A DNA stretch of 45,116 bases, from contig CAMDCH010000001.1 of assembly GCA_945889655.1 (NCBI GenBank), forward strand, positions 1 through 45,116, given 5' to 3'. This DNA comes from a bacterium HR33 (GTDB lineage: Bacteria > Gemmatimonadota > Gemmatimonadetes > Gemmatimonadales > GWC2-71-9). This document shows, in pieces, positions 1,537 through 27,916 of this stretch; the first letter of the stretch is position 1; each line of letters opens with the position of its first letter. The notes under the pieces are model-generated. The model made no database searches. It was not told the DNA's origin and was given only the letters and a program-made list of their open reading frames with translations. The position numbers and the translations under genes are program-made.

Positions 1537-3233
1537 AATTCCGGACGCGGCTGCTGCTCGCGTTCGCGGCAGTCGTCGTGGCGCCGCTGATCACGCTGAT
1601 TGTTGGCATCCGCTACGAGTTCGGCGAACGGCTCGAAGGACAGTACCGGGAACGCCTGGAGCGCATCGCGTCGCTGATTGACGCTGATTTGCAGGTGGAA
1701 GCGACGGATCTCGAGCGCCGGATCCAGACGATTACCGCGGACATAGCGTCGGACAATCGTTTCAGGCTCGCGCTCGCTGGGCAGGCCGACCGCCGGTACA
1801 TCCTCGACTATTCGCCGCGCATGATGGAACAGGGTGGACTCGCCACGCTCTGGATACAGGATTCGTCCGGGCGAATTCTCTCTTCCGGTCACTACCGCAA
1901 CGAGTTCGACCGCATCGTCCGTCTGTTGCCGTCGGCGGACGCCCGGTTTCTGAAGGTCCGACTCCCAGACGGGAACCGCGTGGTCTTTGCGCGCAGGGAA
2001 GGCATCGCGGTCGGGGCGGCCCGTCTCTCCCTGGTCGCCGGCGTCGACGGTCCCGCGCTACTCGCCCGTTACGCGTCGCCGGATTCGCAGGTCACCGTCC
2101 GGCTGCTGCTTCCGGAAGATTCGCTCCCGTCCCTCCCCGGCGCGGTTTCGCAAGTCCTCGCGCAACCGTATGAGGACACCACGGTCGAAGGGGTTGCCGG
2201 CGGTGTGCGGATCATGGTGAGCCAGTCGCTCGGGCCGCTCGCCCAGGTCCGGCGGAACGTGGACCGCTGGTTCCTGGTGGCCGGCGTGGTGACCCTGGGG
2301 GCGGCGCTCGCCATCGCGTGGGCGCTGGCCAATCGTGTAAGTCAGCCCCTCGAAGATCTCGCCGAGAAGACCGCTCGGCTCGACCTCGAGCGGCTGGATG
2401 TTTCCTTTGTTGAGGAGGGGCAAGGGGAGGGGCAGGGGGAGGGTGAGGTCGCCGAGCTGGCGCGCACGCTCCAGCAGATGACGGACCGCCTGCGGGCCAG
2501 CATGGCCACGCTGCGGGAAGCCGAGCGGCGCGCGACCGTGGGCGACCTGGCCCGGCAGCTCAACCACGACATCAAGAACGGTCTCGTGCCGGTGCGGAAT
2601 GTCTTTCGCCATCTCTCGCAGGTGGCGACGGAGAACCCGGCGCAGCTTCCGGCGATCATGCTCGAGCGGCAGGGAACCATCGAGGCGGGGATTACCTATC
2701 TCGAGAACCTCGCCCGCAACTACGCGCGCCTGACACCCGCGCTCGACCGCCAGCCCAGCAATCTGAATGCAATCATCAATGAGGTCGTGCCCCCACTCGG
2801 CACGGGGGCACACCTCGAGCTGGATCTCGCGCCCGGGTTGCCGGACGTGGCGGCGGACCCGCTCGTGCTGCGGCGGATACTGGAGAATCTCGTGAGCAAC
2901 GCGGTCGAGAGTCTCGATGAGGGAGGGGGACAGGTGACCGTGATCACGCGCGGCGGTGGAAACGGAACGGGCGCCTCTTCCGTAGTTCGGCTGACGGTGG
3001 CGGACCAGGGGCGGGGGATGACGGAGCAGGAGCTGGAGCGCGCGTTCCAGGATTTCTACACGACCAAGGCGGGCGGGACCGGCCTGGGGCTCTCGATCGT
3101 TCGCCGCCTTGTGCTTGATCTGAACGGAAGCATGCGCGTAGAGACGGCGCCGAAGAACGGCACTCGCTTCATCATCGATCTGCCGGCAGCGGGCCCACCC
3201 GCCAACCCGCCTACCCGCCTACCCGCCCCATGA
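1533..3233 (+). CDS. Sensor histidine kinase (TM, HAMP-like linker, HisKA, HATPase_c)
   Basis: 566-aa ORF with an N-terminal TM helix and a second TM (WFLVAGVVTLGAALAIAWAL). H-box NHDIKNGL; N/G boxes ENLVSNAVES, DQGRGM, TTKAGGTGLGLSIVRRL. The start overlaps the upstream gene and the stop overlaps the downstream gene. Confidence 0.85.
   Translation: MKFRTRLLLAFAAVVVAPLITLIVGIRYEFGERLEGQYRERLERIASLIDADLQVEATDLERRIQTITADIASDNRFRLALAGQADRRYILDYSPRMMEQGGLATLWIQDSSGRILSSGHYRNEFDRIVRLLPSADARFLKVRLPDGNRVVFARREGIAVGAARLSLVAGVDGPALLARYASPDSQVTVRLLLPEDSLPSLPGAVSQVLAQPYEDTTVEGVAGGVRIMVSQSLGPLAQVRRNVDRWFLVAGVVTLGAALAIAWALANRVSQPLEDLAEKTARLDLERLDVSFVEEGQGEGQGEGEVAELARTLQQMTDRLRASMATLREAERRATVGDLARQLNHDIKNGLVPVRNVFRHLSQVATENPAQLPAIMLERQGTIEAGITYLENLARNYARLTPALDRQPSNLNAIINEVVPPLGTGAHLELDLAPGLPDVAADPLVLRRILENLVSNAVESLDEGGGQVTVITRGGGNGTGASSVVRLTVADQGRGMTEQELERAFQDFYTTKAGGTGLGLSIVRRLVLDLNGSMRVETAPKNGTRFIIDLPAAGPPANPPTRLPAP
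3198..3229 (+). repeat. Tandem octamer array (ACCCGCCN)x4 at the 3' end of the kinase gene
   Basis: acccgcca acccgcct acccgcct acccgccc read directly from the sequence. It encodes the kinase C-terminal PANPPTRLPAP. The same octamer, in the sense orientation of its gene, recurs at 45026-45057. Confidence 0.8.
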
Positions 3234-4588
3234 CGCTCGTTCTCATCGTGGATGATGTCCCCGCCATGTCGGAGCAGTACGCCTACGACCTCAAGCGGCT
3301 CGGCGGATTCGATACGCTCACCGCTGCCGATGGCCGGCAAGCGCTCGAGGTGCTCGAGCGTGAGCCGGTGGACTGCATGATCCTGGACCTCGAGATGCCG
3401 GTACTGGACGGGTTCGGGGTTCTCCAGGCGCTCAAGCAGAAGAAGAGCGACCTGCCCGTGATCGTCTACACCGGCGCCGGCAACTTCGAGCGCTGCATCC
3501 AGGCGGTGCGGCTCGGCGCCTACGGGTTCATCGACAAGGCGGAGCCGGTCGAGCGGGTTGTCGCGGAGGTCGAGAAGGCCATCGAGCGCCGGCAGCTCGT
3601 GGCCGAGGTGTCGGGATTGAAGCGGAGGCTGGGACCGGATTCGCCGCTGGTTGGCGGCAGCTCGGCCATCCGGAAACTCCAGGAGTCCATCGCGCGCGTG
3701 GCGCCCATTCCCAGTCCGGTCCTGATCGTCGGCGAGAGCGGGACAGGCAAAGAGCTGGTCGCGCGCGAGCTTCACCGCCTGGGTCCCGGTGGTGCCAACG
3801 CGCCTTACGTCGCGGTCAACAGTGCGGCGTTACCGGAGCAACTGGTCGAGAGCGAGCTGTTCGGTCATGAGCGTGGGGCGTTCACCGGCGCGGCGCAGCT
3901 CAGGCAGGGGGCGTTCGAGGCGGCGGGGAAGGGCACCATCTTCCTGGACGAGATCGGCGAGCTCCCTCTTCCAGCTCAGGCCAAGCTCCTTCGCGTTCTT
4001 GAGGACCGGAAGCTCACCAGGCTCGGCGGCAACCGGACGGTGAACGTCGAGTCGCGTGTCGTTGCTGCTACTAATCGCGACCTCGATGCCGAGGTGGCGG
4101 AGAAGCGGTTCCGGCAGGATCTCCTGTTCAGGCTGAACGTCCACATCATCCACGTTCCGCCGCTCCGGGATCGCCTGGCGGATGTGGCCGAGCTGGTCGA
4201 GCGCTTTGTCGCTTCCATGTGCGTGCGCTTTGCCATGAAGCAGAAGACGGTCGAGCCAGGTGTGCTCAAGGCGCTGGCTGGCTATGACTGGAAGCGGAAT
4301 AACGTTCGCGAGCTGCGCAACGTGGTCGAGCGGATGATTATTGCTTCGGATGGCGATCTCATCACCGTCGCGGATATCCCAACCGAGATCCAGTTGGAGA
4401 GTCGGGTGGGTGGGCCGGAGGCGGGGACCTTCGCGCGGATGAAGGAAGACGCCGAGCGGGAGATCGTGAAGGCGGCGCTGGAGCGGAATGAGTGGCAGAT
4501 CACGAAGACCGCAAAGGAGCTGGGTCTCGCGGATCATGCGAGCTTGCACAAGATCATGAAGAGGTTGGGGCTGGCGAGGGCCAAGTAG
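3230..4588 (+). CDS. Sigma-54-dependent response regulator (NtrC family)
   Basis: 452 aa. REC domain (ILDLEMP), AAA+ sigma-54 interaction domain with Walker A GESGTGKE and a GAFTGA loop, and a C-terminal Fis-type HTH (ITKTAKELGL). Confidence 0.9.
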   Translation: MTLVLIVDDVPAMSEQYAYDLKRLGGFDTLTAADGRQALEVLEREPVDCMILDLEMPVLDGFGVLQALKQKKSDLPVIVYTGAGNFERCIQAVRLGAYGFIDKAEPVERVVAEVEKAIERRQLVAEVSGLKRRLGPDSPLVGGSSAIRKLQESIARVAPIPSPVLIVGESGTGKELVARELHRLGPGGANAPYVAVNSAALPEQLVESELFGHERGAFTGAAQLRQGAFEAAGKGTIFLDEIGELPLPAQAKLLRVLEDRKLTRLGGNRTVNVESRVVAATNRDLDAEVAEKRFRQDLLFRLNVHIIHVPPLRDRLADVAELVERFVASMCVRFAMKQKTVEPGVLKALAGYDWKRNNVRELRNVVERMIIASDGDLITVADIPTEIQLESRVGGPEAGTFARMKEDAEREIVKAALERNEWQITKTAKELGLADHASLHKIMKRLGLARAK

Positions 4589-4651: not shown

Positions 4652-6061
4652 TTACGGGACCAACTCGCGTATCACGCCATCGGCCTTGTTCAATAGGAAG
4701 ACGCGATTCTCGAGCCCGACTCCGAACCTGAGATCGGCGCGGCCGGCCGGTGAGCGTCCGGCCGCAGTCGCGGCGTCGCCCAGCACCTGAAGAAACCGCC
4801 TTGGCGCACCGCCGCCGCTCGCGAACAGAACCCGGCGGAAGTTGCCACCGCCCTGCGGAAGGCGGTCGGCATCGAATGCGAACATCTCGCCGCTGGGGAA
4901 ATCGGCGAACAGCACCTGGTTCCGCAGCGCGGTGAGCGGTCCGGCCCGGTAGACGATCACGCCGGTGACGGCCACGTTGCCGAGGAGCAAGGGATCGCGA
5001 TGATCGTATTCGACCACCGGGTACAGCACGTTCGTGTCGCCGCGAACGCCCTCGGTGCTCACGATGCCGCGCCCGGCCACGCGATAGCTGCCTTCCCAGA
5101 TGTTCCACCCCAGGTTGGCCCCGGACCGCACGAGTGAAATCTTCTCGACGGCGTTCTGGCCGATGTCGCTCATGAACATGTTGCCGTTGGCGGGATCCCA
5201 GCCGAACCGCTGGGGATTCCGCACGCCGGAGGCGTAGATCTCCTTCAGCGCGCCTGACGGTCCTCCCTGCGCCCACGGGTTCGTCGCCGGGATACCGTAC
5301 TTCCCATTGGGCGAGCTGGTGCCGAGGGGATCAATTCGAAGAATCTTGCCGAAGATCGAGGCGGCGTTCTGGGCCATGTTCAGCGGGTCGCCGCCGCTCC
5401 CGCCGTCCGCGACTCCAACGTAGAGGAGCCCGAAGTCGGGCTGTCCGGAACGCGCCAGCGGATTGAAGGCGAGCATGCCGCCGTTGTGGTTGGCGAACGG
5501 CTGCTCGATGCGGAGCAACTGCTTCGGCGCGTCACCGTCATAGGTGGGAGAGGCGGGACTCCTGGCGCGCCACTCGTGCAGCGCGGTGTGGTGCGTGTTG
5601 CCTCCGCCGCCGGGCCGGTAGTCGACCGGGACACTTGTGTCGACCACATCTGACCAGGTGTAGAAGCGACCGTAGCCCGGCGTGCCGGCCTGGGCGAACT
5701 GCGGGTGGAACGCGAAGCTCTGGACTCCGCGTTCGCGTCCCCCCGACTGCACCTGGACGTTCCACTGCGCGGCATTCACGTCGAGGTACGGCGTGACGGT
5801 GCGGCCGTCGTAGCCAACGCTGTAGACCGGGCCGCGCATGTCGTTTACGAACAGGCGGCGCGTGCCGGGCTCGTCCACGAGGAGCATCATGCGGGCGGGA
5901 ACGCCGGCGATGTCCGGGACGCGGGCAAAGTCCGCGACGTTGACCACGATGGCGCGCGCCGTGTCGATGGGTGGAAGCGGGTCGCCGGTTTGCTGCGCGC
6001 ACGCCGGTGCGGCGAGCACGCTCATGACGAGAAAGGCAGACAGGATCGCGGATGTTTTCAT
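4652..6061 (-). CDS. PQQ-dependent sugar dehydrogenase-like protein (GSDH/YliI family), secreted
   Basis: 469 aa with signal peptide [23 protein letters not shown]. Motifs [11 protein letters not shown] and [12 protein letters not shown] are typical of soluble glucose/sorbosone dehydrogenase beta-propellers. Confidence 0.8.
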
Positions 6062-6109
6062 GTGGCCGTCGGGGTTCGGGGTGGAGTAGGTGAAACGCTA
6101 CCCCGGGAT

Positions 6110-6391
6110 GTAGCTCGAGGGCAACGGGTGGGCGCGTCGCGGGCCGTAACCCAGGCGGTGTGGAGTAGCGGCCTGACCAAGCGCGCCACCTGTCACACCT
6201 TCCGGCATTCATTTGCGACCCACCTTCTCGAGAGCGGTGCGGACATCCGGACCGTCCAGGAGCTCCTGGGCCATCGGGACGTTTCCACCACCATGCTCTA
6301 TACCCATGTCCTGAATCGAGGCGGGCTCGGCGTTCGGAGTCCGGCGGACCGGAGTGACTTCCAGGACCTGCTTGCAGGCATGGCGGATTAG
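6110..6391 (+). pseudogene. intI: 5'-truncated integron integrase remnant (C-terminal ~85-90 aa only)
   Basis: The tail of ORF 5705..6391 reads [71 protein letters not shown]. This is the box II HxxR / catalytic-Tyr region of tyrosine recombinases plus the IntI-typical YTHVL..GG.GV.SP.D tail. The upstream part of the ORF is only antisense to the dehydrogenase gene, so the N-terminal ~230 aa of an integrase are absent. The left boundary is approximate. Confidence 0.75.
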
Positions 6392-6470
6392 GCTGCGAAG
6401 GCGTAGGATGAGCGTGTTAGGCTGCAAGACGGAACCACGACCACGCAGGTCCAATACTAGTTAGACGGCG
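6385..6470 (+). promoter_or_regulatory. attI-like region with three integrase-box-like repeats ending in a GTTAGAC crossover-type site
   Basis: ATTAGGCTGCGAAG (6388-), GTTAGGCTGCAAGA (6416-) and GTTAGACGGCGCC (6460-). The last has the same GTTAGRCGGC context that follows each attC R' site. Confidence 0.4.
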
Positions 6471-6485
6471 CCACCGGAGGCTAAC

Positions 6486-6716
6486 ATGTCTCAACCCGAG
6501 TCCCCGCTAGGACGTTCAATTGGCCTCGCCGGCGTCATTCGCTGGCTCATCGCCGTGGTGGCTGCGATCGCAATCGGTGCGGCATTCGCCGACGGCTACT
6601 ACGCTTTGGCCATCGCTGGCATCGTATTCCTTGTTGCTGCGGTGGCTCTTGGGTATCGGGCTTGGCGCGCTCGGCCGGCGGCCGGTGCTCCCCGCTCTCC
6701 GCAAAGGCCCTTGTGA
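6486..6716 (+). CDS. Cassette 1: small two-TM membrane protein, unknown function
   Basis: 76-aa ORF with two hydrophobic helices (VIRWLIAVVAAIAIGAAF; LAIAGIVFLVAAVALGY). It ends 11 nt before attC1. Confidence 0.5.
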   Translation: MSQPESPLGRSIGLAGVIRWLIAVVAAIAIGAAFADGYYALAIAGIVFLVAAVALGYRAWRARPAAGAPRSPQRPL

Positions 6717-6727
6717 ACCAAGGCGCC

Positions 6728-6872
6728 GTCTAACAAGTGCTTGAAGCTGGCGAGCGCTCGCAAGTAAGGAAGAATTGCATATGTGCCCGCTGCATTTGAT
6801 ACACGTTGCCGGCCTGCACCTCCTTGCGCCGGATGAGCCGGCGCTCGCAGCTTAAGCGCAGCTCGGTTAGAC
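6728..6872 (+). repeat. Integron attC site 1
   Basis: R'' GTCTAAC at 6728-6734 and R' GTTAGAC at 6866-6872. The left arm GCTTGAAGCTGGCGAGCGC pairs with the right arm GCGCTCGCAGCTTAAGC, leaving two unpaired G in the left arm. Homologous to the repeats at 7330, 8042, 8570 and 11356. Confidence 0.8.
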
Positions 6873-6905
6873 GGCAGCAACCTTCGTGGCTAGATTCGAA
6901 GTACG

Positions 6906-7109
6906 ATGATATTCCGCATTGAGATCGAGCGTGAGACGGACGGTCGCTGGCTGGCCGAGGTGCCGGACTTGGCTGGCGTCATGACGTACGGCGCCTCGCG
7001 CGATGAGGCTATGTCGCGCGTTCAGGCCCTGGCGCTGCGCGTCATTGCCGAGCGCCTCGAGCACGGCGAAGCTCAAGCCCAGCTGCAGATCACCTTCCAG
7101 GCTGCGTGA
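6906..7109 (+). CDS. hicB: Cassette 2: HicB-family antitoxin (UPF0150)
   Basis: 67 aa. MIFRIEIERETDGRWLAEVPDLAGVMTYGASRDEAMSRVQALALRVIAERLE matches the HicB N-terminal fold pattern (..DG.W.A.VPDL.G....G.T.EEA...). GTGA overlap with the next gene. Confidence 0.8.
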   Translation: MIFRIEIERETDGRWLAEVPDLAGVMTYGASRDEAMSRVQALALRVIAERLEHGEAQAQLQITFQAA

Positions 7110-7317
7110 GCACGTGGGGAGCCGCGCCGGCGCGTCGCGTGCTGGCTGCTCTCCTTCGTATCGGCTGGTCCCTCAAACGCTCATCCGGTTCCCACATGAC
7201 ACTCAGCCGGCCAGGCTGGGCCGACTATGCATTCGCCTTCCACGACTCCGAAGAGATCGGTCCCAAGATGCTTCCCGGATTGGAAAGCGGACCGGTCTTC
7301 AACCCGAAGATCTCTGA
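7106..7317 (+). pseudogene. hicA: Cassette 2: HicA/YcfA-family toxin with an apparent 1-nt deletion near the 3' end
   Basis: Frame 2 gives ..RRVLAALLRIGWSLKRSSGSHMTLSRPGWADYAFAFHDSEEIGPKML. The family-typical C-terminus (A)RIGKRTGLQPEDL* is in frame 1 and ends at 7317, just before attC2. The uninterrupted frame instead reads through attC2 to 7456. Confidence 0.65.
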
Positions 7318-7329
7318 TCAACGGCTGCC

Positions 7330-7473
7330 GTCTAACAAGCGCTTGAAGTTGCCGAGCGCGTTGTTTGGAACAATTGCATTCGTGCCCGCCGCCTTTGATC
7401 AGACGAGTCATCAATCCACCCTCCTTGCGCCGCAGCAGTCTACGCTCGCAGCTTAAGCGCAACTCCGTTAGCC
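7330..7473 (+). repeat. Integron attC site 2
   Basis: R'' GTCTAAC at 7330-7336 and R' GTTAGCC at 7467-7473. Same conserved internal sequence (..gaacaattgcattcgtgcccgccgc..ccctccttgcgccgc..gctcgcagcttaagcgcaactcc). Confidence 0.8.
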
Positions 7474-7524
7474 AGCAGCTCCCGTAGCTGCCGCTCCAAC
7501 CCGTTCCGCCGTAAGATTCTGTGA

Positions 7525-7761
7525 ATGCCCACGGTTCTCAGATCTGGCCCGTACCGCTTCTTCTTCTATTCGGCCGATCGGGAAGAACCACCCCATGTGC
7601 ATGTAGCCCGGGATGATTGCCATGCCAAGTTCTGGCTCGAGCCGGCGCGGTTGGACCAAAGCACCGGGTTCGGCCGGGCAGAGTTGAGAAAGCTTGAGGT
7701 CCTAGTGCATCAGAACGCAGGCCCGCTTCGAAAGGCGTGGGATGACTACTTCACCACATGA
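7525..7761 (+). CDS. Cassette 3: DUF4160 domain protein
   Basis: 78 aa. The pattern ..YRFFFYSADREEPPHVHVARDDCHAKFWLEP.. matches the DUF4160 core (F.FY..EH.PPH.HV......AKF.L). Confidence 0.8.
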   Translation: MPTVLRSGPYRFFFYSADREEPPHVHVARDDCHAKFWLEPARLDQSTGFGRAELRKLEVLVHQNAGPLRKAWDDYFTT

Positions 7762-8047
7762 TCTCCGACAGGCATTGGCCCAAGACGTCCGCGTTGTCGA
7801 TGAAACCCTCATCGTCGACCTAGTGGACGGCCGGACCCTGTCAGTGCCCGTTGCCTGGTACCCTCGCCTCGCCCACGGCACTGCTGCCGAGCAAGCACAG
7901 TGGGAGTTGATAGGCCGAGGCCATGGGATCCATTGGGTGCAGCTGGACGAGGATATCGGCGTCGACGATCTGCTGGCGGGGCACCGTTCGGGGGAGTCCC
8001 AAGCATCGTTGCAGCGCTGGCTCCAATCCCGGAAGGCTGCTGGCTAA
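7742..8047 (+). CDS. Cassette 3: DUF2442 domain protein
   Basis: 101 aa. ..LIVDLVDGRTLSVPVAWYPRL..A...Q..WELIGRGHGIHWVQLDEDIGVDDLL is the DUF2442 pattern. The TAA stop lies inside the R'' box of attC3. Confidence 0.8.
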   Translation: MTTSPHDLRQALAQDVRVVDETLIVDLVDGRTLSVPVAWYPRLAHGTAAEQAQWELIGRGHGIHWVQLDEDIGVDDLLAGHRSGESQASLQRWLQSRKAAG

Positions 8048-8185
8048 CAAGCGCTTGAAGCTGACGAGTGCTTTACCAGGAACAATTGCATTCGTGCCCG
8101 CCGCATTTGTTCAGACGGGGCACCAATCCACCCTCCTTGCGCCGCATGAGCCTGCGCTCGCAGCTTAAGCGCAACTCCGTTAGGC
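8042..8185 (+). repeat. Integron attC site 3
   Basis: R''-like GGCTAAC at 8042-8048 and R' GTTAGGC at 8179-8185. Conserved family sequence. Confidence 0.8.
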
Positions 8186-8192
8186 GGCAACA

Positions 8193-8564
8193 ATGCTCTC
8201 CAGGCCCACCCGCTGGCTGACCGTAGTTGGGGCGTTTTTCCTACTGAGCGCTTGCTACACCTGGCGTCCTGTGCCAATGACAGCCTTCGGACCTGAGTCC
8301 GTTGTCCGCGTCACTACGCAGGAAGGGGCCACGTTTCTCTTGCACGACAGCCGCCCGATTGGAGACAGTGTATGGGGCTGGATCGACACCGCACCCCGTC
8401 TTCGATCGGATACTGCCATGGCCCGGACAGCCCTACGGCAGTTGGAGGTTCAGCGCCTCCATGCCGGACGATCAATCGCTCTCGGAGCGGGAGTTGGGAT
8501 ACCCGTAGCCTTAGCCTTCGCTGCCCTCACGACCCGATGCTTGTTTGTCTGCGTCGAGTATTGA
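8193..8564 (+). CDS. Cassette 4: lipoprotein with a C-terminal TM segment, unknown function
   Basis: 123 aa. Lipobox FLLSAC and a C-terminal hydrophobic segment (IALGAGVGIPVALAFAAL). It starts 8 nt after attC3 and ends 5 nt before attC4. Confidence 0.55.
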   Translation: MLSRPTRWLTVVGAFFLLSACYTWRPVPMTAFGPESVVRVTTQEGATFLLHDSRPIGDSVWGWIDTAPRLRSDTAMARTALRQLEVQRLHAGRSIALGAGVGIPVALAFAALTTRCLFVCVEY

Positions 8565-8569
8565 GTGCC

Positions 8570-8713
8570 GCATAACAAGCGCTTGAAGCCGACAAGCGCG
8601 TTACCCGGAACAATTGCATTCGTGCCCGCCGCATTTGATCAGACGGCGCACCAATCCGCCCTCCTTGCGCCGCATGAGCCTGCGCTCGCAGCTTAAGCGC
8701 AACTCCGTTAGGC
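8570..8713 (+). repeat. Integron attC site 4
   Basis: R''-like GCATAAC at 8570-8576 and R' GTTAGGC at 8707-8713. Conserved family sequence. Confidence 0.8.
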
Positions 8714-8803
8714 GGCGCCACGACCGTAACCCACGCAGTCCGTTCATCGACGACGCGCGCGGGGCGCGCATTCTACGCCGCGGCAATCAGCACCGCCCTG
8801 GCT

Positions 8804-9120
8804 GTGGGTGCACTCCAGATGTACCGCGTCCGCGGAGGACTCTTGACCGACTACGGCGCCGACGTGTTCGGAACGGCGTGGCTGTACGCGATGACCCGTC
8901 AGGGCCGAACAATCATCCAGCGCGGTCGAACGACGGGCGCCACGAGCGCAGCGGCGATCGTCTTCGCGCTTTGTGCGCTCTCGAACTAGGTCAGCGGGTG
9001 CACCTCGTACCAGGCCACTTCGATCCGTACGATATAGTGGCGTATGGCGTAACCGTTGTCGCCTGCTGGGGCGTTGACCGACGTTTCCCCTTCGTTGAGT
9101 CGGCTAATTGCGTTGAGTGA
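8804..9120 (+). pseudogene. Cassette 5: possible DUF2809-like membrane protein split by a frameshift (tentative)
   Basis: Frame 2 (8804-8989) gives ..YGADVFGTAWLYAMT..AAAIVFALCAL. Frame 1 continues ..ALCALELGQRVHLVPGHFDPYDIVAYGVTVVACWGVDR to 9120. Joined, the two halves resemble DUF2809 proteins from memory; no alignment could be run. Confidence 0.3.
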
Positions 9121-9132
9121 GGCCAATCAGGA

Positions 9133-9849
9133 ATGATGCAAGCACAATCTGTTTTCCTCTTACTCTGTATCACCATGTATGGCTGCGCTCACGGTGAGCG
9201 GCCTGCCGCTAACTGCAAATGGCCCACAGAAACGCCAGCCACGCTGAATCTCCGAGACCGCACCGATCAGAGACACCTCAGGGATGATGCGCTAAGAGCA
9301 GAGGATCTCGCGATTCGGTACGCCGATTCCGTCAATGCCCCGCATTCCGGACATTTCGAGGGATTCCTGGTCTACAATCAAACAAGAGACAGCTGCATGA
9401 CCGCCCTCTTCGACGCGGTTGCGCGGAACCACGCGGTACCTCCCGACGATGTTCGGACATCTCTTACGCGTCGTCCCGTCAGCGCGGATTTAGCCATAAT
9501 GCTCTCTTTCGCCATCTGCTATGCCTTCCTGGCCTACAGTATGAGTGGGCAATTGGCCCGTAACTTTCCATTCGAGGAAGGGTATGCCGCCCCTGTCGTG
9601 GCAACCATCGTGGCTTCAGTCGTGATCAGCTTGTCCGGGGTGTTGGTCGGTGAGTGGTATTCACTCGCCGCCGAGAACATTCGCGTTGGCAGTGGTCACC
9701 TGAGTTATCGAATCGGGCGCATCCCTTGGAATCAGCACCGGCCGGGGCTTTTCTTGATTGGTGTTGTTCTCTTTTGGCTGGTTGCGGCCATTCGCTATCG
9801 GCAGAGAAGCGAGCACATGGGTCGGCCCTCGCCACTTCGCGGACGTTGA
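9133..9849 (+). CDS. Hypothetical lipoprotein/membrane protein (visibly lower GC than surroundings)
   Basis: 238 aa. Signal with lipobox-like MYGCAHG and about 3 C-terminal TM helices. No family recognised. Confidence 0.5.
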   Translation: MMQAQSVFLLLCITMYGCAHGERPAANCKWPTETPATLNLRDRTDQRHLRDDALRAEDLAIRYADSVNAPHSGHFEGFLVYNQTRDSCMTALFDAVARNHAVPPDDVRTSLTRRPVSADLAIMLSFAICYAFLAYSMSGQLARNFPFEEGYAAPVVATIVASVVISLSGVLVGEWYSLAAENIRVGSGHLSYRIGRIPWNQHRPGLFLIGVVLFWLVAAIRYRQRSEHMGRPSPLRGR

Positions 9850-9857
9850 GGGCTGAG

Positions 9858-10283
9858 CGGTTAGGGATATAGCTGACAGATCACTCGTGGGACATCGCTA
9901 ACACCTGGTGTGACGGTGCTGACGGCCTTGGTGGTCCACGATCTTCCCTGGCGTTCGTCGAACCAGCCGAGCGTAACCATCCCGAAGGACACCGTCCAGA
10001 TCCCGTCGTCGATCTCTTCGAAGCCGATGTATTCCTCCGCCAGCAAGTGACTGACCGGGACGCGATGGGCGTGCCAGCGAATCCCGCCGTTGCGACTGAC
10101 GCGCCGGACTTCGAAGTGCGGCGGATACTCGAGGAGCGGCAGCCGGCGCGGATAGAGCCGCGGGGACGGGGAATAGAGGCGAATCGGCGGCCGCTGGCCG
10201 AGCGCTTCATGCGGTCGCTCGTAGTTGTAGTCAAACCGAAAGGCATCGAAGCGGCGCTGTTGGGCGCGGAGCGTCGCCTCGGC
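9858..10283 (-). mobile_element. IS481-family (rve/DDE) transposase, C-terminal fragment only
   Basis: The minus-strand translation reads DSAEATLRAQQRRFDAFRFDYNYERPHEALGQRPPIRLYSPSPRLYPRRLPLLEYPPHFEVRRVSRNGGIRWHAHRVPVSHLLAEEYIGFEEIDDGIWTVSFGMVTLGWFDER.. This is the typical C-terminal third of IS481-type transposases. The frame is closed by a TAG exactly at the junction with the partial attC (10284-10286), and no N-terminal part is present. Confidence 0.75.
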
Positions 10284-10285
10284 CG

Positions 10286-10395
10286 AGTCGCGCTACCTGG
10301 AACAACTACATTCGTGCCCGCCGCACCTGATTGGACGGAGTACCAATTGCGCCGCACCAGCCTGCGCTCGCAGTTTAAGCGCAGCTCCGTTAGGC
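10286..10395 (+). repeat. Integron attC site 5, partial (R''/L'' left arm missing)
   Basis: Homology to the attC family starts at ..cctggaacaactacattcgtgcccgccgca.. and runs to R' GTTAGGC at 10389-10395. The left ~35 bp are replaced by the IS fragment. Confidence 0.7.
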
Positions 10396-10482
10396 GGCTG
10401 ATACGCGCTTTCCGCTACAACGATTTCCGCACGCATGGTGGCGGGCGGATAACGTGAAAGCAAAACAGAAGGAAATAGAATC

Positions 10483-11001
10483 ATGAAAATACAAATTTCA
10501 GTCGTTAAGTCGCTCGCTGTAGCAGTGACTCTAACAGCCCTTCTCGCCGCGACTTCCGTGCAAGCTGCTGCGCAGGTCGAGAAGAGTCTGTACGAACGGC
10601 TTGGCGGCGTCTTCGCGATCGCCGCGGTAGTTGACCACTTTAGCGACGCGGTGGTGAAAAACCCGATCGTCGGAAAGAATTCGACGAACCCAGCCCTCAG
10701 GAAATGGCACAGGGAGAACTTGAGCAGGCTGCCGGGCCTCAAGTTCATGCGAACCCTGTGGGTCTGTCAGGTCACGGGCGGGCCATTGAAATTCTCGCCA
10801 ACAAAACCGGGAAGGACTGAATTGGGTCTTGAGGAGGCGCATCGCGATCTCAAAATCTCGCCAGCAGAATTTGACGAGGTCGCGGCCGAGCTAAGTCGCT
10901 CGCTTGACTTCGCCAAAGTGCCTGCGCGTGAGAAGGGAGAAGTCCTCTCCGCTTTCGCAGCGCATAAGGACGAGGTAACGGCTGGCTACAAGGCGAAGTG
11001 A
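10483..11001 (+). CDS. Cassette 6: group-1 truncated hemoglobin (Bac_globin) with an N-terminal signal peptide
   Basis: 172 aa. Signal MKIQISVVKSLAVAVTLTALLAATSVQAAAQ, then SLYERLGGVFAIAAVVDHFSDAVVKNP.. and ..LEEAHRDLKISPAEFDEVAAEL, which give the trHb start motif and proximal-His region. Confidence 0.8.
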   Translation: MKIQISVVKSLAVAVTLTALLAATSVQAAAQVEKSLYERLGGVFAIAAVVDHFSDAVVKNPIVGKNSTNPALRKWHRENLSRLPGLKFMRTLWVCQVTGGPLKFSPTKPGRTELGLEEAHRDLKISPAEFDEVAAELSRSLDFAKVPAREKGEVLSAFAAHKDEVTAGYKAK

Positions 11002-11085
11002 TTACCGGGCACGCGCGTTTCAAGTCGCTGATTCGTGCCACTGGGGTCAGCGAGCGCTCGGATCCAACCCGGGCAGGAAGACCAG

Positions 11086-11343
11086 ATGCCAAAAACGCGA
11101 GCCGAGCGAACAAAAGGGCGTGGTATGCCGCCGACTAAGCGGGCGTTGAAGGGGGCGCAGAAGCTCGGCCGCCAGGATCCCGAGCGCGGCGTTACGAGCC
11201 GCGCTCGCAAGCGAAAACAGGGCGCGGAGGCGGTCCCCGACCCTCGGTACGGCGGCCGTCCGGGGCGAAAGCATTCGAAATGGGGTCCACCGAAAGAAAA
11301 GCTGAGTCCCAGGCAGAAGAAGGCCGCGCGCGCGAAGAACTAG
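11086..11343 (+). CDS. Cassette 6: small highly basic protein, unknown function
   Basis: ATG at 11086 preceded by aggaag. 85 aa rich in K/R (MPKTRAERTKGRG..RQKKAARAKN). It ends 12 nt before attC6. No family recognised, and it could be non-coding. Confidence 0.35.
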   Translation: MPKTRAERTKGRGMPPTKRALKGAQKLGRQDPERGVTSRARKRKQGAEAVPDPRYGGRPGRKHSKWGPPKEKLSPRQKKAARAKN

Positions 11344-11355
11344 CGGCACCGCGCG

Positions 11356-11505
11356 GCCTAACATGCGCTTGAAGCTGGCGAGCGCTCCCAAGTAAGGAAC
11401 TATTGCGTATGAGCCCGCCGCATTTGATCAGACGGCGCGGCACTCAACCCTCCTTGCGCCGCAACAGCCTGCGCTCGCAGCTTAGAGCGCAAATCCGGTA
11501 TGCCG
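11356..11505 (+). repeat. Integron attC site 6 with a degenerate R' box
   Basis: R'' GCCTAAC at 11356-11362 and conserved arms (gcgcttgaagctggcgagcgc / gcgctcgcagcttagagcgc). The R' position reads GGTATGC instead of GTTRRRY. Confidence 0.65.
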
Positions 11506-11587
11506 ACGGAGGAGGACCGCGGCGAGCATCGTGCCGCGTCGCGCGACTTAGACAACGCCTGACCCGTCCGCCGCGAGTCGCCCAGAA

Positions 11588-12076
11588 CTACTTCATCGCG
11601 ACCACGTGCTCCACGAACTGATCGACGGCGATCTCGGTGCCCTGGTAAAAGCCCGACGTCTTGTTTGTCTCGAGATCCGCTTCATTCCGGTGCAGCGCCG
11701 TGAAGACGTAGCGGGTGCCGGTTCCCACGGTTTCCATCGTAACGATGGCCGTGATCGGAATGTCGTCAAAGACAGCCGGGCGGTAGCCGGGGAACAACAT
11801 GGAGGTCCAGACAAGTCGCTCCATCGGAATAACTTCCAGGAAACAGCCGAGGTTGGGAACCTCCTGACCGCCTGCCACCGCGATGTTGATGCTGAAGATG
11901 CCGCCCGGTCGCAAATCCATTTCGGTTCGGGCCACACGCCCCCAGGACCTGGGCATGTACCACTCTTTCAGATGCTCCGGTTTCGTCAACGCTTCCCAGA
12001 CAAGCCTCGTGGGAGCGTCGATGAACCGTTCGATACCGAAATCCAGCTTCGGATTGATCGTGAATTGCTTGCTCAT
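11588..12076 (-). CDS. SRPBCC/AHSA1-family protein (reverse-oriented cassette cargo)
   Basis: Start MSKQFTI at 12076 (ATGA overlap with arsR). ..FIDAPTRLVWEALTKPEHLKEWYMP..W.....EMDLRPGGIF... is the AHSA1/SRPBCC pattern. Confidence 0.8.
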   Translation of the reverse strand: MSKQFTINPKLDFGIERFIDAPTRLVWEALTKPEHLKEWYMPRSWGRVARTEMDLRPGGIFSINIAVAGGQEVPNLGCFLEVIPMERLVWTSMLFPGYRPAVFDDIPITAIVTMETVGTGTRYVFTALHRNEADLETNKTSGFYQGTEIAVDQFVEHVVAMK

Positions 12077-12414
12077 GACCCTGATTCCTTCTCCTTGAGC
12101 TGTTTGACGTATTGGTCGAACCGGTCCAGTCGAGCTTCCCACAACTGACGACGCGCGGTCAGCCAGTCTTCAACGACCTTGAACCGTTCGGGCACGATCT
12201 CATACGTCCGCACACGCCCGTGCTTTTTCGACCTCACCAGTCGGCTCTGTTCGAGCACCGCCAGGTGCTGCACAAACGAGGGGAGTTGCATGTCGAATGG
12301 TGCCGCCAGCTCGCTGACTGTGGCTGGTCCGACAGACAGTTGCTCCAGGACCTTCCGCCGAGTCGGGTTGGACAAGGCATAGAAAACACCGTCAGCGACT
12401 GCGGATTGAACCAT
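12073..12414 (-). CDS. ArsR/SmtB-family transcriptional regulator
   Basis: 113 aa. VFYALSNPTRRKVLEQLSVGPATVSELAAPFDMQLPSFVQHLAVLEQSRLVRSKKHGRVRTYEI is a winged-HTH ArsR signature. This is the common arsR-SRPBCC gene pair. Confidence 0.85.
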   Translation of the reverse strand: MVQSAVADGVFYALSNPTRRKVLEQLSVGPATVSELAAPFDMQLPSFVQHLAVLEQSRLVRSKKHGRVRTYEIVPERFKVVEDWLTARRQLWEARLDRFDQYVKQLKEKESGS

Positions 12415-12505
12415 TTCAACACCAGTCGATTGGTTGGGGTGCCCGATCTGACGGAGAGACTATATCGCCGGTCAATACTAAGGTCAAGACATAAGTATTG
12501 TCGCT

Positions 12506-12557
12506 TCCTTGCGCTGGCGCAGCCTGCGCTCGCAGCTTAAGCGCAACTCCGTCAGGC
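12506..12557 (+). repeat. attC right-half relic (site 7)
   Basis: ccttgcgctggcgcagcctgcgctcgcagcttaagcgcaactccGTCAGGC matches the right arm of the family. The R' is degenerate (GTCAGGC) and no left arm is found upstream. Confidence 0.55.
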
Positions 12558-12566
12558 CGCAGGTCA

Positions 12567-15651: not shown

Positions 15652-15969
15652 ATGCTCCAGGCTCTTCTCCCCCTCCCATTGCTTTTCGCTGCGTTGATCG
15701 TCGGCACTGATCGACGCATCATCCGAGAGCTACGACGCGCGGGTGCTACCGCGAAGCACGCCTCCATCGCGCTTCGTTCGTCTTTCATTCGCCAATATCG
15801 CCTTCGCCGCCTCTCCGCAGTCGGCGCCCTTGGGGTCGTGGAGGGGAATCGCTATTACCTGGACGAAGCTGGGTGGGCCCACTATCGGCGGGTGCGCCGG
15901 ATCCGGGTGCTGGCAGTTGCTGTTGTGTTGACACTTGGCGGTGCAGCGTGGTGGCTCCGCTTCCCGTAA
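15652..15969 (+). CDS. Hypothetical membrane protein
   Basis: ATG at 15652. TM helices at the N- and C-termini (LLPLPLLFAALIVG; VLAVAVVLTLGGAAWW). No family recognised. Confidence 0.35.
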   Translation: MLQALLPLPLLFAALIVGTDRRIIRELRRAGATAKHASIALRSSFIRQYRLRRLSAVGALGVVEGNRYYLDEAGWAHYRRVRRIRVLAVAVVLTLGGAAWWLRFP

Positions 15970-15977
15970 AAAAGCGT

Positions 15978-16071
15978 CTTCGTGCCCGCCCCTTGATCGA
16001 GCGGTGCACCAATCCACCCTCCTTGCGCCGCACTAGCCTGCGCTCGCAGCTTAAGCGCAACTCCGTTGGGC
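15978..16071 (+). repeat. Solo attC-like site (right two-thirds), 3.4 kb beyond the array
   Basis: cttcgtgcccgcc..caccaatccaccctccttgcgccgcactagcctgcgctcgcagcttaagcgcaactccGTTGGGC. The right arm is near-identical to the array attCs and the R' fits GTTRRRY. No R''/L'' left arm. Confidence 0.65.
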
Positions 16072-16089
16072 CGCACAAACGAGGACTAT

Positions 16090-22409: not shown

Positions 22410-22553
22410 TGGGAATCCGGAAGGGGACGCCGGGGCCTACGTCCAGAGAGAGGATGGGGTTTCACATCCCTTCTTGCGCCCCACCCGCCGGCACTGGCAG
22501 GTTAAGTTCAAACTCCATCAGGCCGCCAGCACACGTCCCGAGGAAACACAATC

Positions 22554-26786: not shown

Positions 26787-26986
26787 TCGCCGACCGAACA
26801 CGCCGCCGACAGCCAGGGTGTTCGGAGGGACACGCGACCACCATCCCGCGGTCGCGGAGCCAAAGCCTAAGTCCAACTGAAACAATGACATAGCAAAAAG
26901 GCCGCCGCCCGCTCCAACTGGCAGCGGCCTTGCTCTTTCTCCCACCCGGAAACCACGCCCTGCGGGGCTCAACCCGGGAGAAGGAA

Positions 26987-27916
26987 ATGTTCGAAAGCAG
27001 AAAGAGCGGTCTTATCGCGGCCACGATCTGGGGAGCGCTGTTGCTCGCACAGGCGGCTTGCGGAGAGAAGAAAGAGCCACGGATCTCGCAGATCGAAACG
27101 GATGGACGCGGATCCACTCCGGTCACTTCGGAGACTACGGTCACGCCCGTGGTGAAAACGACCGAAATCACCGGCCCGGTGACTTTCGAGGATGGAGAAG
27201 TCGCGTTTGGCGAGAAAAAGTACGATGAGGCCACGAAGATCTTTCAGGTCTACACCACCGAGAAGCCGCAGAATCCGTGGGGCTTCTACATGCTCGGCCT
27301 CTCTTCGTGGAAGTCAAACGACCTCGAGACCGCCGAGACGGCGTTCCTCAAGACCGTCGAGCTCGACCCCTCGCACGTGAAGGGGAAGTTCAACCTCGGT
27401 CGCGTCTACCTGGACAAGGGCGAGCCGGACAAGGCGGTCGAGCAGTTCACGGCCGCGCTGCTGATCGATTCCAATTCGGCCGAGGGGTACCGGCTCCTTG
27501 GTCGCGCGCAGGATGAGCAGGGCCTGCTGGTGGAGGCGGAGCATTCGTACCGCCAGGCCATCAAGCTGGACAGCGCCGACTACTGGGCCATGAACAACCT
27601 GGCCATGAACTTCATCCTCCAGGATCGTCCGGGTGAAGCGCTCGGCGTGCTGGCCCGCGTGGTCGAGATCAAGCCCGACAACACGCTGTTCCAGAACAAC
27701 CTCGGCATGGCGCTGGAGCTGAACGGCTACTTCGTGAAGGCCAGCGAGTCGTACGCGAAGGCCGTGGAGCTGGACACCGGCTCACAGAAGGCGATGGAGA
27801 ATCTCGCCCGCGTGACCGGCCATCCCGATGTGGAAGGACTGGATGAACTCAATCTCGACGCTCTCGCCGCCGGTTTTGCGACGGAGGTTTCGAGTCCGCA
27901 GGTGAGTACGAACTAA
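26987..27916 (+). CDS. TPR-repeat lipoprotein
   Basis: ATG after gggagaagga. Lipobox LLAQAAC. Several TPR units (..A...F.K.VELDP.....KFNLGRVYLDKGEPDKAVEQF..AL.ID..). Confidence 0.75.
   Translation: MFESRKSGLIAATIWGALLLAQAACGEKKEPRISQIETDGRGSTPVTSETTVTPVVKTTEITGPVTFEDGEVAFGEKKYDEATKIFQVYTTEKPQNPWGFYMLGLSSWKSNDLETAETAFLKTVELDPSHVKGKFNLGRVYLDKGEPDKAVEQFTAALLIDSNSAEGYRLLGRAQDEQGLLVEAEHSYRQAIKLDSADYWAMNNLAMNFILQDRPGEALGVLARVVEIKPDNTLFQNNLGMALELNGYFVKASESYAKAVELDTGSQKAMENLARVTGHPDVEGLDELNLDALAAGFATEVSSPQVSTN

Follow-up and report, generated by a model that had tools for sequence, protein, structure and literature searches.

Features of the locus

The window, by which the whole stretch of 45,116 nucleotides that was analysed is meant, belongs to the metagenome-assembled genome (MAG) of an uncultured member of the Gemmatimonadaceae. 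It carries a complete sugar dehydrogenase gene, beside which lie the 3' end of an integron integrase gene (intI), an attI region, and a cassette array, all of them placed between two anchor genes of the backbone:

3230–4588, plus strand: sigma-54-type response regulator, left backbone anchor (Pfam Response_reg and Sigma54_activat; ENA gene call)
4652–6061, minus strand: PQQ-type glucose/sorbosone dehydrogenase (GSDH; PF07995, 1.5e-18), 469 aa with a signal peptide, complete, ATG at 6061
6062–6106, no strand: junction spacer of 45 nt, from the dehydrogenase ATG to the first IntI-homologous base, without a match to anything
6107–6391, plus strand: intI pseudogene remnant, IntI residues ~234–334, ~94 codons, stop codon TAG at 6389–6391
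6392–6466, plus strand: attI region, core GGTCCAATACTAGTTAGAC at 6448–6466, presumed crossover G6460/T6461
6461–12563, plus strand: cassette array, ~8 cassettes in ~6 kb (nhmmer attC copies and Pfam matches of the open reading frames)
26930–27916, plus strand: gene for a TPR protein, right backbone anchor (Pfam TPR families; tblastx to L135 and L229)

The dehydrogenase gene is transcribed divergently, away from the integrase remnant. It had 414 relatives, the alignment spanning residues 1–469 with up to 71% identity, and its GC3 (0.84) was similar to that of backbone genes. No Rfam match was found in the window, and a terminator scan of positions 5900–6900 returned nothing.

Identity and extent of the integrase remnant

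The plus-strand frame next to the dehydrogenase gene is the end of an integron integrase gene. Indeed, its best NCBIfam match was TIGR02249 (integron integrase; E 6.4e-36, 124 bits, profile positions 243–314 of 315), followed by the class 1 equivalog (1.8e-26), XerD (5e-24), and XerC (2.5e-23), and the frame also matched Pfam Phage_integrase (6e-20, model positions 109–169 of 172). The score of 124 bits falls under the curated whole-protein cut-off of TIGR02249 (265 bits), because just 72 of the 315 profile positions are present. A tblastn search of the whole MAG with an IntI of 334 aa (P0034) aligned its residues 234–332 with positions 6107–6382 at 73% identity. Similarly, the full-length proteins P0004 and P0034 (both 334 aa) shared 72–74% identity with the remnant over 101 aa, from residue 234 to the end, with one gap of 7 aa. 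According to these tblastn and BLASTP alignments, approximately 233 codons are missing at the 5' end, the surviving part representing the last ~28% of the gene. This agrees with the preliminary description, which had reported an intI fragment at 6110–6391 on the plus strand that lacked about 230 N-terminal codons; the start of homology could be refined to approximately 6107. The gap found by BLASTP against P0004 and P0034 corresponds to a second, internal in-frame deletion of 7 codons (RHHLHES motif, near 6125–6131). Apart from these two losses, the frame is open.

A search of 5.8 billion proteins returned integron integrases of the Gemmatimonadales/Gemmatimonadaceae as the top matches, the closest being a metagenomic IntI (P0002) with 90% identity over 84 residues, unusual tail included. 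In a tree of the C-terminal 95 columns, a short alignment with modest support, the remnant was placed inside the IntI sequences, as sister to P0002 (SH-aLRT 87) and in the IntI subgroup with an AGxAD tail (83), with Xer and other tyrosine recombinases as outgroups on long branches. The alignment to IntI references and the tree, which had been proposed earlier as a check, thus group the fragment with IntI and away from Xer.

The remnant retains the HxxR and GH motifs, the nucleophilic Tyr, and the IntI-type tail (NRGGxGVxSPxD type, ...AGMAD), identical to the family consensus. Absent are the N-terminal SAM-like DNA-binding domain, the box I Arg, the catalytic Lys, and the IntI-specific insertion, all within residues 1–233. 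With all of these gone, the stub would be unable to recombine DNA, and its recombinase function has most probably been lost. Judged by its sequence, it is a fragment of a member of the integron-integrase family and not a functional member. The ENA gene callers predicted an 87-aa product for the stub, labelled 'Phage_integrase', a label that could make annotation pipelines report a complete integron.

Neither a full IntI nor an N-terminal IntI piece was found in the 2.65-Mb, 85.5%-complete MAG by HMM searches and by tblastn with a close full-length IntI, and TIGR02249 profile positions 1–242 had no match in the window or elsewhere in the MAG. The earlier designation of the locus as an integrase-less, CALIN-like array is borne out to this extent. 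It is indeed fair to call the array CALIN-like within an 85.5%-complete MAG, i.e. an attC cluster without a working intI nearby and with just a stub of 94 codons.

attI site and cassette array

The attI core GGTCCAATACTAGTTAGAC is situated 68 nt past the intI stop codon and is preceded by the direct repeats GCGGATTAGGCTGC (6383–6396) and GCGTGTTAGGCTGC (6412–6425). The three closest full-length relatives for which DNA was available (L140, L141, and L143) possess the same core, GGTCCAA(T/A)(A/G)C(T/C)nGTTAGGC, at the same distance (70–71 nt when counted from the first base of the stop codon of their intact intI genes), and the attI of the window therefore lies in its native register. The first cassette open reading frame begins 20 nt beyond the GTTAGAC box (26 nt from the first G of the box). 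A core GGTCCAATACTnGTTAGRC at a fixed distance behind intI was observed for the IntI subfamily with the ...AGxAD tail. The attI core is an imperfect inverted repeat (GTCCAAT/GTTAGAC), resembling an attI simple site. A scan of metagenomes for the core retrieved 70 contigs, with an IntI upstream in only approximately 16; the remaining ones are probably mostly chance matches, the core having ~17 specified bases. A conserved attI core could aid in delimiting integrons in Gemmatimonadales genomes.

The attC copies were located with an nhmmer model built from five copies, all matches given below being nhmmer matches:

6719–6880, plus strand: attC copy
7321–7480, plus strand: attC copy (attC2)
8032–8193, plus strand: attC copy
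8560–8720, plus strand: attC copy
10285–10401, plus strand: attC copy, partial
11349–11508, plus strand: attC copy
12504–12563, plus strand: attC copy, partial
15969–16078, plus strand: attC copy, solitary and partial, beyond the array among backbone-like genes (1.7e-23)
22454–22526, plus strand: weak, solitary attC-like match (1e-05), not recovered with a broader model

In total, six full and three partial attC sites were counted in the window, every one of them on the plus strand. In the array, they are homogeneous, with a length of approximately 150–160 bp and a mean column identity of 83%, and the initial 18 bases of the repeat, comprising the R'' box plus the adjoining bases, occurred five times, versus 0.01 times expected by chance. 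The boxes R'' (RYYYAAC) and R' (GTTRRRY) are present at the ends of an imperfect palindrome (GTCTAAC...GTTAGAC and similar). When the minus strand of attC3 was folded as DNA, R' paired with R'' and a T and a C were unpaired on the 3' (R''/L'') arm, the fold z-scores being weak (-1.4 to -2.1 for attC3 and about 0 for attC2). The bottom strand of a canonical attC site, which is the recombining one, has its unpaired bases on this 3' arm. Therefore, the plus strand is the attC top strand.

The cassette genes encode, according to Pfam, HicB/HicA, DUF4160/DUF2442, a globin, and an AHSA1/SRPBCC protein, and eight of the ten cassette open reading frames examined are on the plus strand. The frame of a HicA-type toxin (7106–7456) continues through attC2, giving 116 aa, of which Pfam HicA matches only residues 10–56, consistent with a frameshift noted earlier. 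Partial attC sites, the frameshifted hicA, and solitary attC sites among backbone genes represent further scars of rearrangement. The same attC family was encountered on three other contigs of the MAG (four copies at C175:3191–4987, two at C14:14047–15906, and one at C28:16362–16461), so that array or CALIN pieces of this genome are not confined to those in the window.

Orientation of the integrase relative to the cassettes

The stub, attI, the attC top strands, and the cassette genes share one direction, the 3' end of the stub facing attI and the first cassette. This co-orientation had been noticed in the preliminary description and is confirmed by the plus-strand position of all attC sites and of eight of the ten open reading frames. 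It is also the layout normally found in this lineage. In 32 of 61 genomes of the order, an IntI scored above the curated cut-off, and 23 intI loci of the order were scanned with an iterated attC model, 16 of which gave attC matches. All 63 matches (63/63) were on the intI strand, downstream of the intI 3' end. The three closest full-length IntI relatives are co-oriented too and are trailed by runs of small same-strand genes, whereas a class 1 integron used as a control displayed the classical divergent layout, as expected. In the cultured Gemmatirosa kalamazoonensis, at least 12 direct repeats of approximately 100 bp occur 3' of intI and none 5' of it. The intI concerned is apparently intact and resides on plasmid 1 of strain KBS708 (NZ_CP007129.1, 1.1 Mb; L146 8001–16891); the PLSDB record of the plasmid is without annotation, and the integron on it might be used as an experimental model of the co-oriented type. 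Co-orientation was thus found in every scorable integron of the order, and it appears that a co-oriented layout in which attI follows the intI stop codon by approximately 70 nt is universal in the Gemmatimonadales. A divergent full-length intI at this locus, which would have pointed to a local inversion, was not encountered in the relatives.

A phylogenetic 'inverted integrase group' of IntI was reportedly delineated by Boucher et al. in 2007. The group is already recognised in the literature (Domingues et al. 2012, PMC3575428), and a co-oriented integron layout is present in Treponema denticola (Wu et al. 2013, PMC3607928). In archaeal integrons, attI directly follows intI (Ghaly et al. 2022, PMC9668308). 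The phyla listed as integron-bearing include the Gemmatimonadota (PMC8618304). The earlier characterisation of co-orientation as a minority trait does not apply to the Gemmatimonadales, in which it is the norm.

Integrase decay in the order

Broken intI genes are common in the order, as frameshifts were found in G019 and G012, internal deletions in G033 and G055, and 3' stubs in G041, G053 (two), G050, and G048. Metagenome contigs with the same attI core are similarly varied: some of their intI genes are intact, others frameshifted, internally deleted, or truncated at the 5' end, and the breakpoints differ. These cases provide a data point on a poorly studied phylum, namely that integrase decay is frequent in the Gemmatimonadales. 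More generally, pseudogenes account for about one third of intI genes (Nemergut et al. 2008, PMC2426708), and an intI pseudogene was located near 15 of 279 CALINs (Cury et al. 2016, PMC4889954).

In the 70-aa core of the stub, no change occurred at the positions that are invariant across 35 IntI proteins; the frameshifted intI genes of two metagenome contigs (L154 and L195) had several changes at family-invariant positions. Pairwise dN/dS ratios were 0.08–0.16 for the stub versus 0.04–0.15 for intact genes, a weak test because dS was saturated (>1). The conservation of the core and the low dN/dS suggest a fairly recent truncation, and would also fit continued constraint. The contigs L154 (9001–10000) and L195 (174–1173) are otherwise unrelated, and their intI genes have the same frame change near residue 100, whereas two MAG proteins (P0016 and P0046) begin at the equivalent position (MRLP(V/T)VL...). 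The frame change in common might stem from descent within one pseudogene lineage, from a site prone to sequencing errors, or from another cause. In a metagenomic protein of 177 aa (P0061), a C-terminal-like piece, FNRGGLGVKRPLDRIDLAG, stands ahead of IntI residues ~190–334, which points to tandem duplication of part of yet another decayed intI.

Junction with the dehydrogenase gene and flanking synteny

IntI homology begins 46 nt from the dehydrogenase ATG by BLAST and 76 nt from it by HMM, close to the 50–80 nt over which it had been described as fading. In the alignment of the translated junction frame, IntI similarity was absent before residue D16. When the sequence from 6040 to 6140 was compared with the whole MAG by blastn-short, solely the self-match was obtained and no insertion sequence (IS) end was found. 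The only repeat at the junction is a direct repeat of 13 nt (12/13 identical; CGGGGTGGAGTAG at 6077–6089 and CGGTGTGGAGTAG at 6156–6168), of which one copy falls within the spacer and one within the stub of intI; its occurrence is within chance expectation, and it is probably due to chance.

The exact dehydrogenase protein was found to be encoded on two more ENA assemblies, which originate from other samples (ERZ27280297 and ERZ27280223). Their contigs (32.8 and 43.5 kb, versus 45.1 kb for the window) have different ends, are colinear with the window across the junction, and both show two mismatches in 10–12 kb, i.e. 99.98% identity. The dehydrogenase gene and the intI stub are therefore truly adjacent, their junction being no assembly artefact.

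Concerning the flanks, orthologues of the response regulator were retrieved in G001 (contig C1, 73% identity) and G036 (contig C67, 61% identity). In both genomes (L135 and L229, respectively), the HK-RR genes are followed by the TPR gene within approximately 0.4–1.6 kb, whereas the corresponding gap in the window measures approximately 22 kb. In G001, a gene for a MoxR ATPase (90% amino acid identity) also follows HK-RR. The segment from 4.6 to 26.9 kb hence looks lineage-specific; it is a mix of the dehydrogenase gene, the decayed integron, backbone-like genes, and stray attC sites, and it is clear that more than one rearrangement has affected the locus. Dehydrogenase orthologues had neither an intI nor this regulator within 10 kb in any of 80 loci (0/80), so that these loci are uninformative on the ancestral state. 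Within the same genus, G001 carries its orthologues of the regulator (73%) and of the dehydrogenase (71%) on different contigs, recombinase matches in this genome being confined to contig edges or to non-IntI proteins, and G002 has an orthologue of neither gene. A full-length intI occurs approximately 3 kb from the regulator orthologue in G036 (contig C67; L229 1362–2300, minus strand), where it flanks the operon on its other side and is directed away from it. Given this position, it was not accepted as the ancestral state; its proximity to the regulator may be a coincidence or a hint of a regional hotspot.

Origin of the truncated integron

The best explanation of the locus, to which a probability of roughly 85% is assigned, is that a sedentary chromosomal integron with the co-oriented ('inverted integrase') layout has decayed in this uncultured member of the Gemmatimonadaceae, its intI gene having been truncated by a deletion or rearrangement. 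In the ancestral state, an intI of approximately 334 codons would have been read toward its own attI, 68 nt past its stop codon, and cassettes, entering at G|TTAGAC, would have accumulated beyond it on the same strand. A deletion or rearrangement may then have taken the first ~233 intI codons together with whatever lay upstream, its breakpoint ending 45 nt from the start codon of the divergent sugar dehydrogenase gene, and a second, small in-frame deletion would have taken seven more codons. With attI and at least six full attC sites remaining, the array would be frozen unless an IntI is supplied in trans. Three observations stand against this explanation. First of these is synteny: the search for a full co-oriented intI between a dehydrogenase orthologue and the array, suggested in the preliminary description, yielded no relative with an intI beside the dehydrogenase gene, the nearest genomes being just ~70% identical at the protein level. 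The second is the completeness of the MAG (85.5%), as an intact intI or its missing 5' part could lie on unassembled DNA. The third is the core of the stub, unchanged at family-invariant positions and with dN/dS ratios barely exceeding those of intact genes, which is compatible with a recent truncation but also with continued constraint on this DNA. The earlier statement that a deletion fused the two loci stands as regards the truncation abutting the dehydrogenase gene, which is real. Its mechanism is unproven, however, as intI was found at none of the 80 dehydrogenase loci and the regulator-TPR synteny is broken by 22 kb. A fusion by deletion is plausible, but the breakpoint in intI may mark either a simple deletion or an edge of some larger rearrangement.

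An assembly artefact was also considered, the window being a contig of a short-read MAG; yet a chimera is very unlikely, with a probability close to negligible, because the two other assemblies are colinear over the junction at 99.98% identity and no repeat capable of misleading an assembler is present there. More weight can be given to an inversion or translocation that split the integron, with the breakpoint inside intI and the 5' three-quarters of the gene surviving elsewhere, beside the former neighbour of the dehydrogenase gene. The ~22 kb (4.6–26.9 kb) that lie between the regulator and TPR genes, which are close together in G001 and G036, the solitary attC sites among backbone-type genes, and the same-family attC copies on C175, C14, and C28 are all in favour of it, and rearrangement is given as a route to CALINs by Cury et al. 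(PMC4889954). Nevertheless, the HMM and tblastn searches of the 2.65-Mb MAG revealed no N-terminal IntI fragment, and the junction contains neither a repeat nor an IS end, so that a split integron is left with a modest chance.

Finally, the 3' end of intI and attI might have been kept by selection, either for promoter or regulatory signals of the first cassettes or for the promoter of the dehydrogenase gene, or for a residual role of the 87-aa peptide. The 3' stubs recur (G033, G041, G053 (two), G050, G012, G048, L158, L160, and L197), the frame of the stub is open with a core unchanged at invariant positions and a product predicted by the ENA gene callers, and, with only 45 nt between the stub and the dehydrogenase ATG, the stub or attI must harbour the dehydrogenase promoter. 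However, a scan of both strands of 5900–6900 revealed no sigma-70-like promoter, and the breakpoints vary by lineage (residues ~167 to ~275), as would be the case for independent neutral truncations. Moreover, the number of 3' stubs is biased, the C-terminus being the most conserved and detectable part and an attI-based search finding only 3' ends, and the residues and domains required for catalysis and DNA binding are missing from the stub. Retention by selection is thus improbable. Equally slender is the chance that, in co-oriented integrons in general, the intI end and attI form a functional unit, for instance a cassette promoter or control region, that is preferentially kept during integrase decay; if true, this would explain the many array-attached 3' intI stubs in the Gemmatimonadales as well as the clean core found here.

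Comparison with known systems

The truncated integron is an unremarkable example of a well-known type of decay, namely one more dead integrase beside a frozen array. It resembles the intI pseudogenes or 'pseudo-integrons' (PMC2426708) and the CALINs with an intI pseudogene (PMC4889954) in that a major deletion inactivated the recombinase while the attC array is still adjacent, in that no working intI is nearby, and in that the cassettes are of unknown function or encode toxin-antitoxin pairs. Unlike in those systems, just the last ~28% of intI is left, the breakpoint abuts an unrelated, intact housekeeping-type gene, and the host is represented by a Gemmatimonadaceae MAG, from a phylum that reviews merely list as integron-bearing (PMC8618304). 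In layout, the locus is similar to the 'inverted integrase' integron of Treponema denticola and to archaeal integrons, with intI on the cassette strand and directed toward attI, which lies just past its stop codon. The IntI proteins of the Gemmatimonadales are 52% identical to the class 1 IntI1 over their full length and, on the short C-terminal alignment, about as close to it as to anything else. Lastly, the long and homogeneous attC sites, the toxin-antitoxin cassettes, and the chromosomal location are shared with superintegrons of the Vibrio type, whereas the array is small (~8 cassettes in ~6 kb), co-oriented instead of divergent, and accompanied by a dead integrase.
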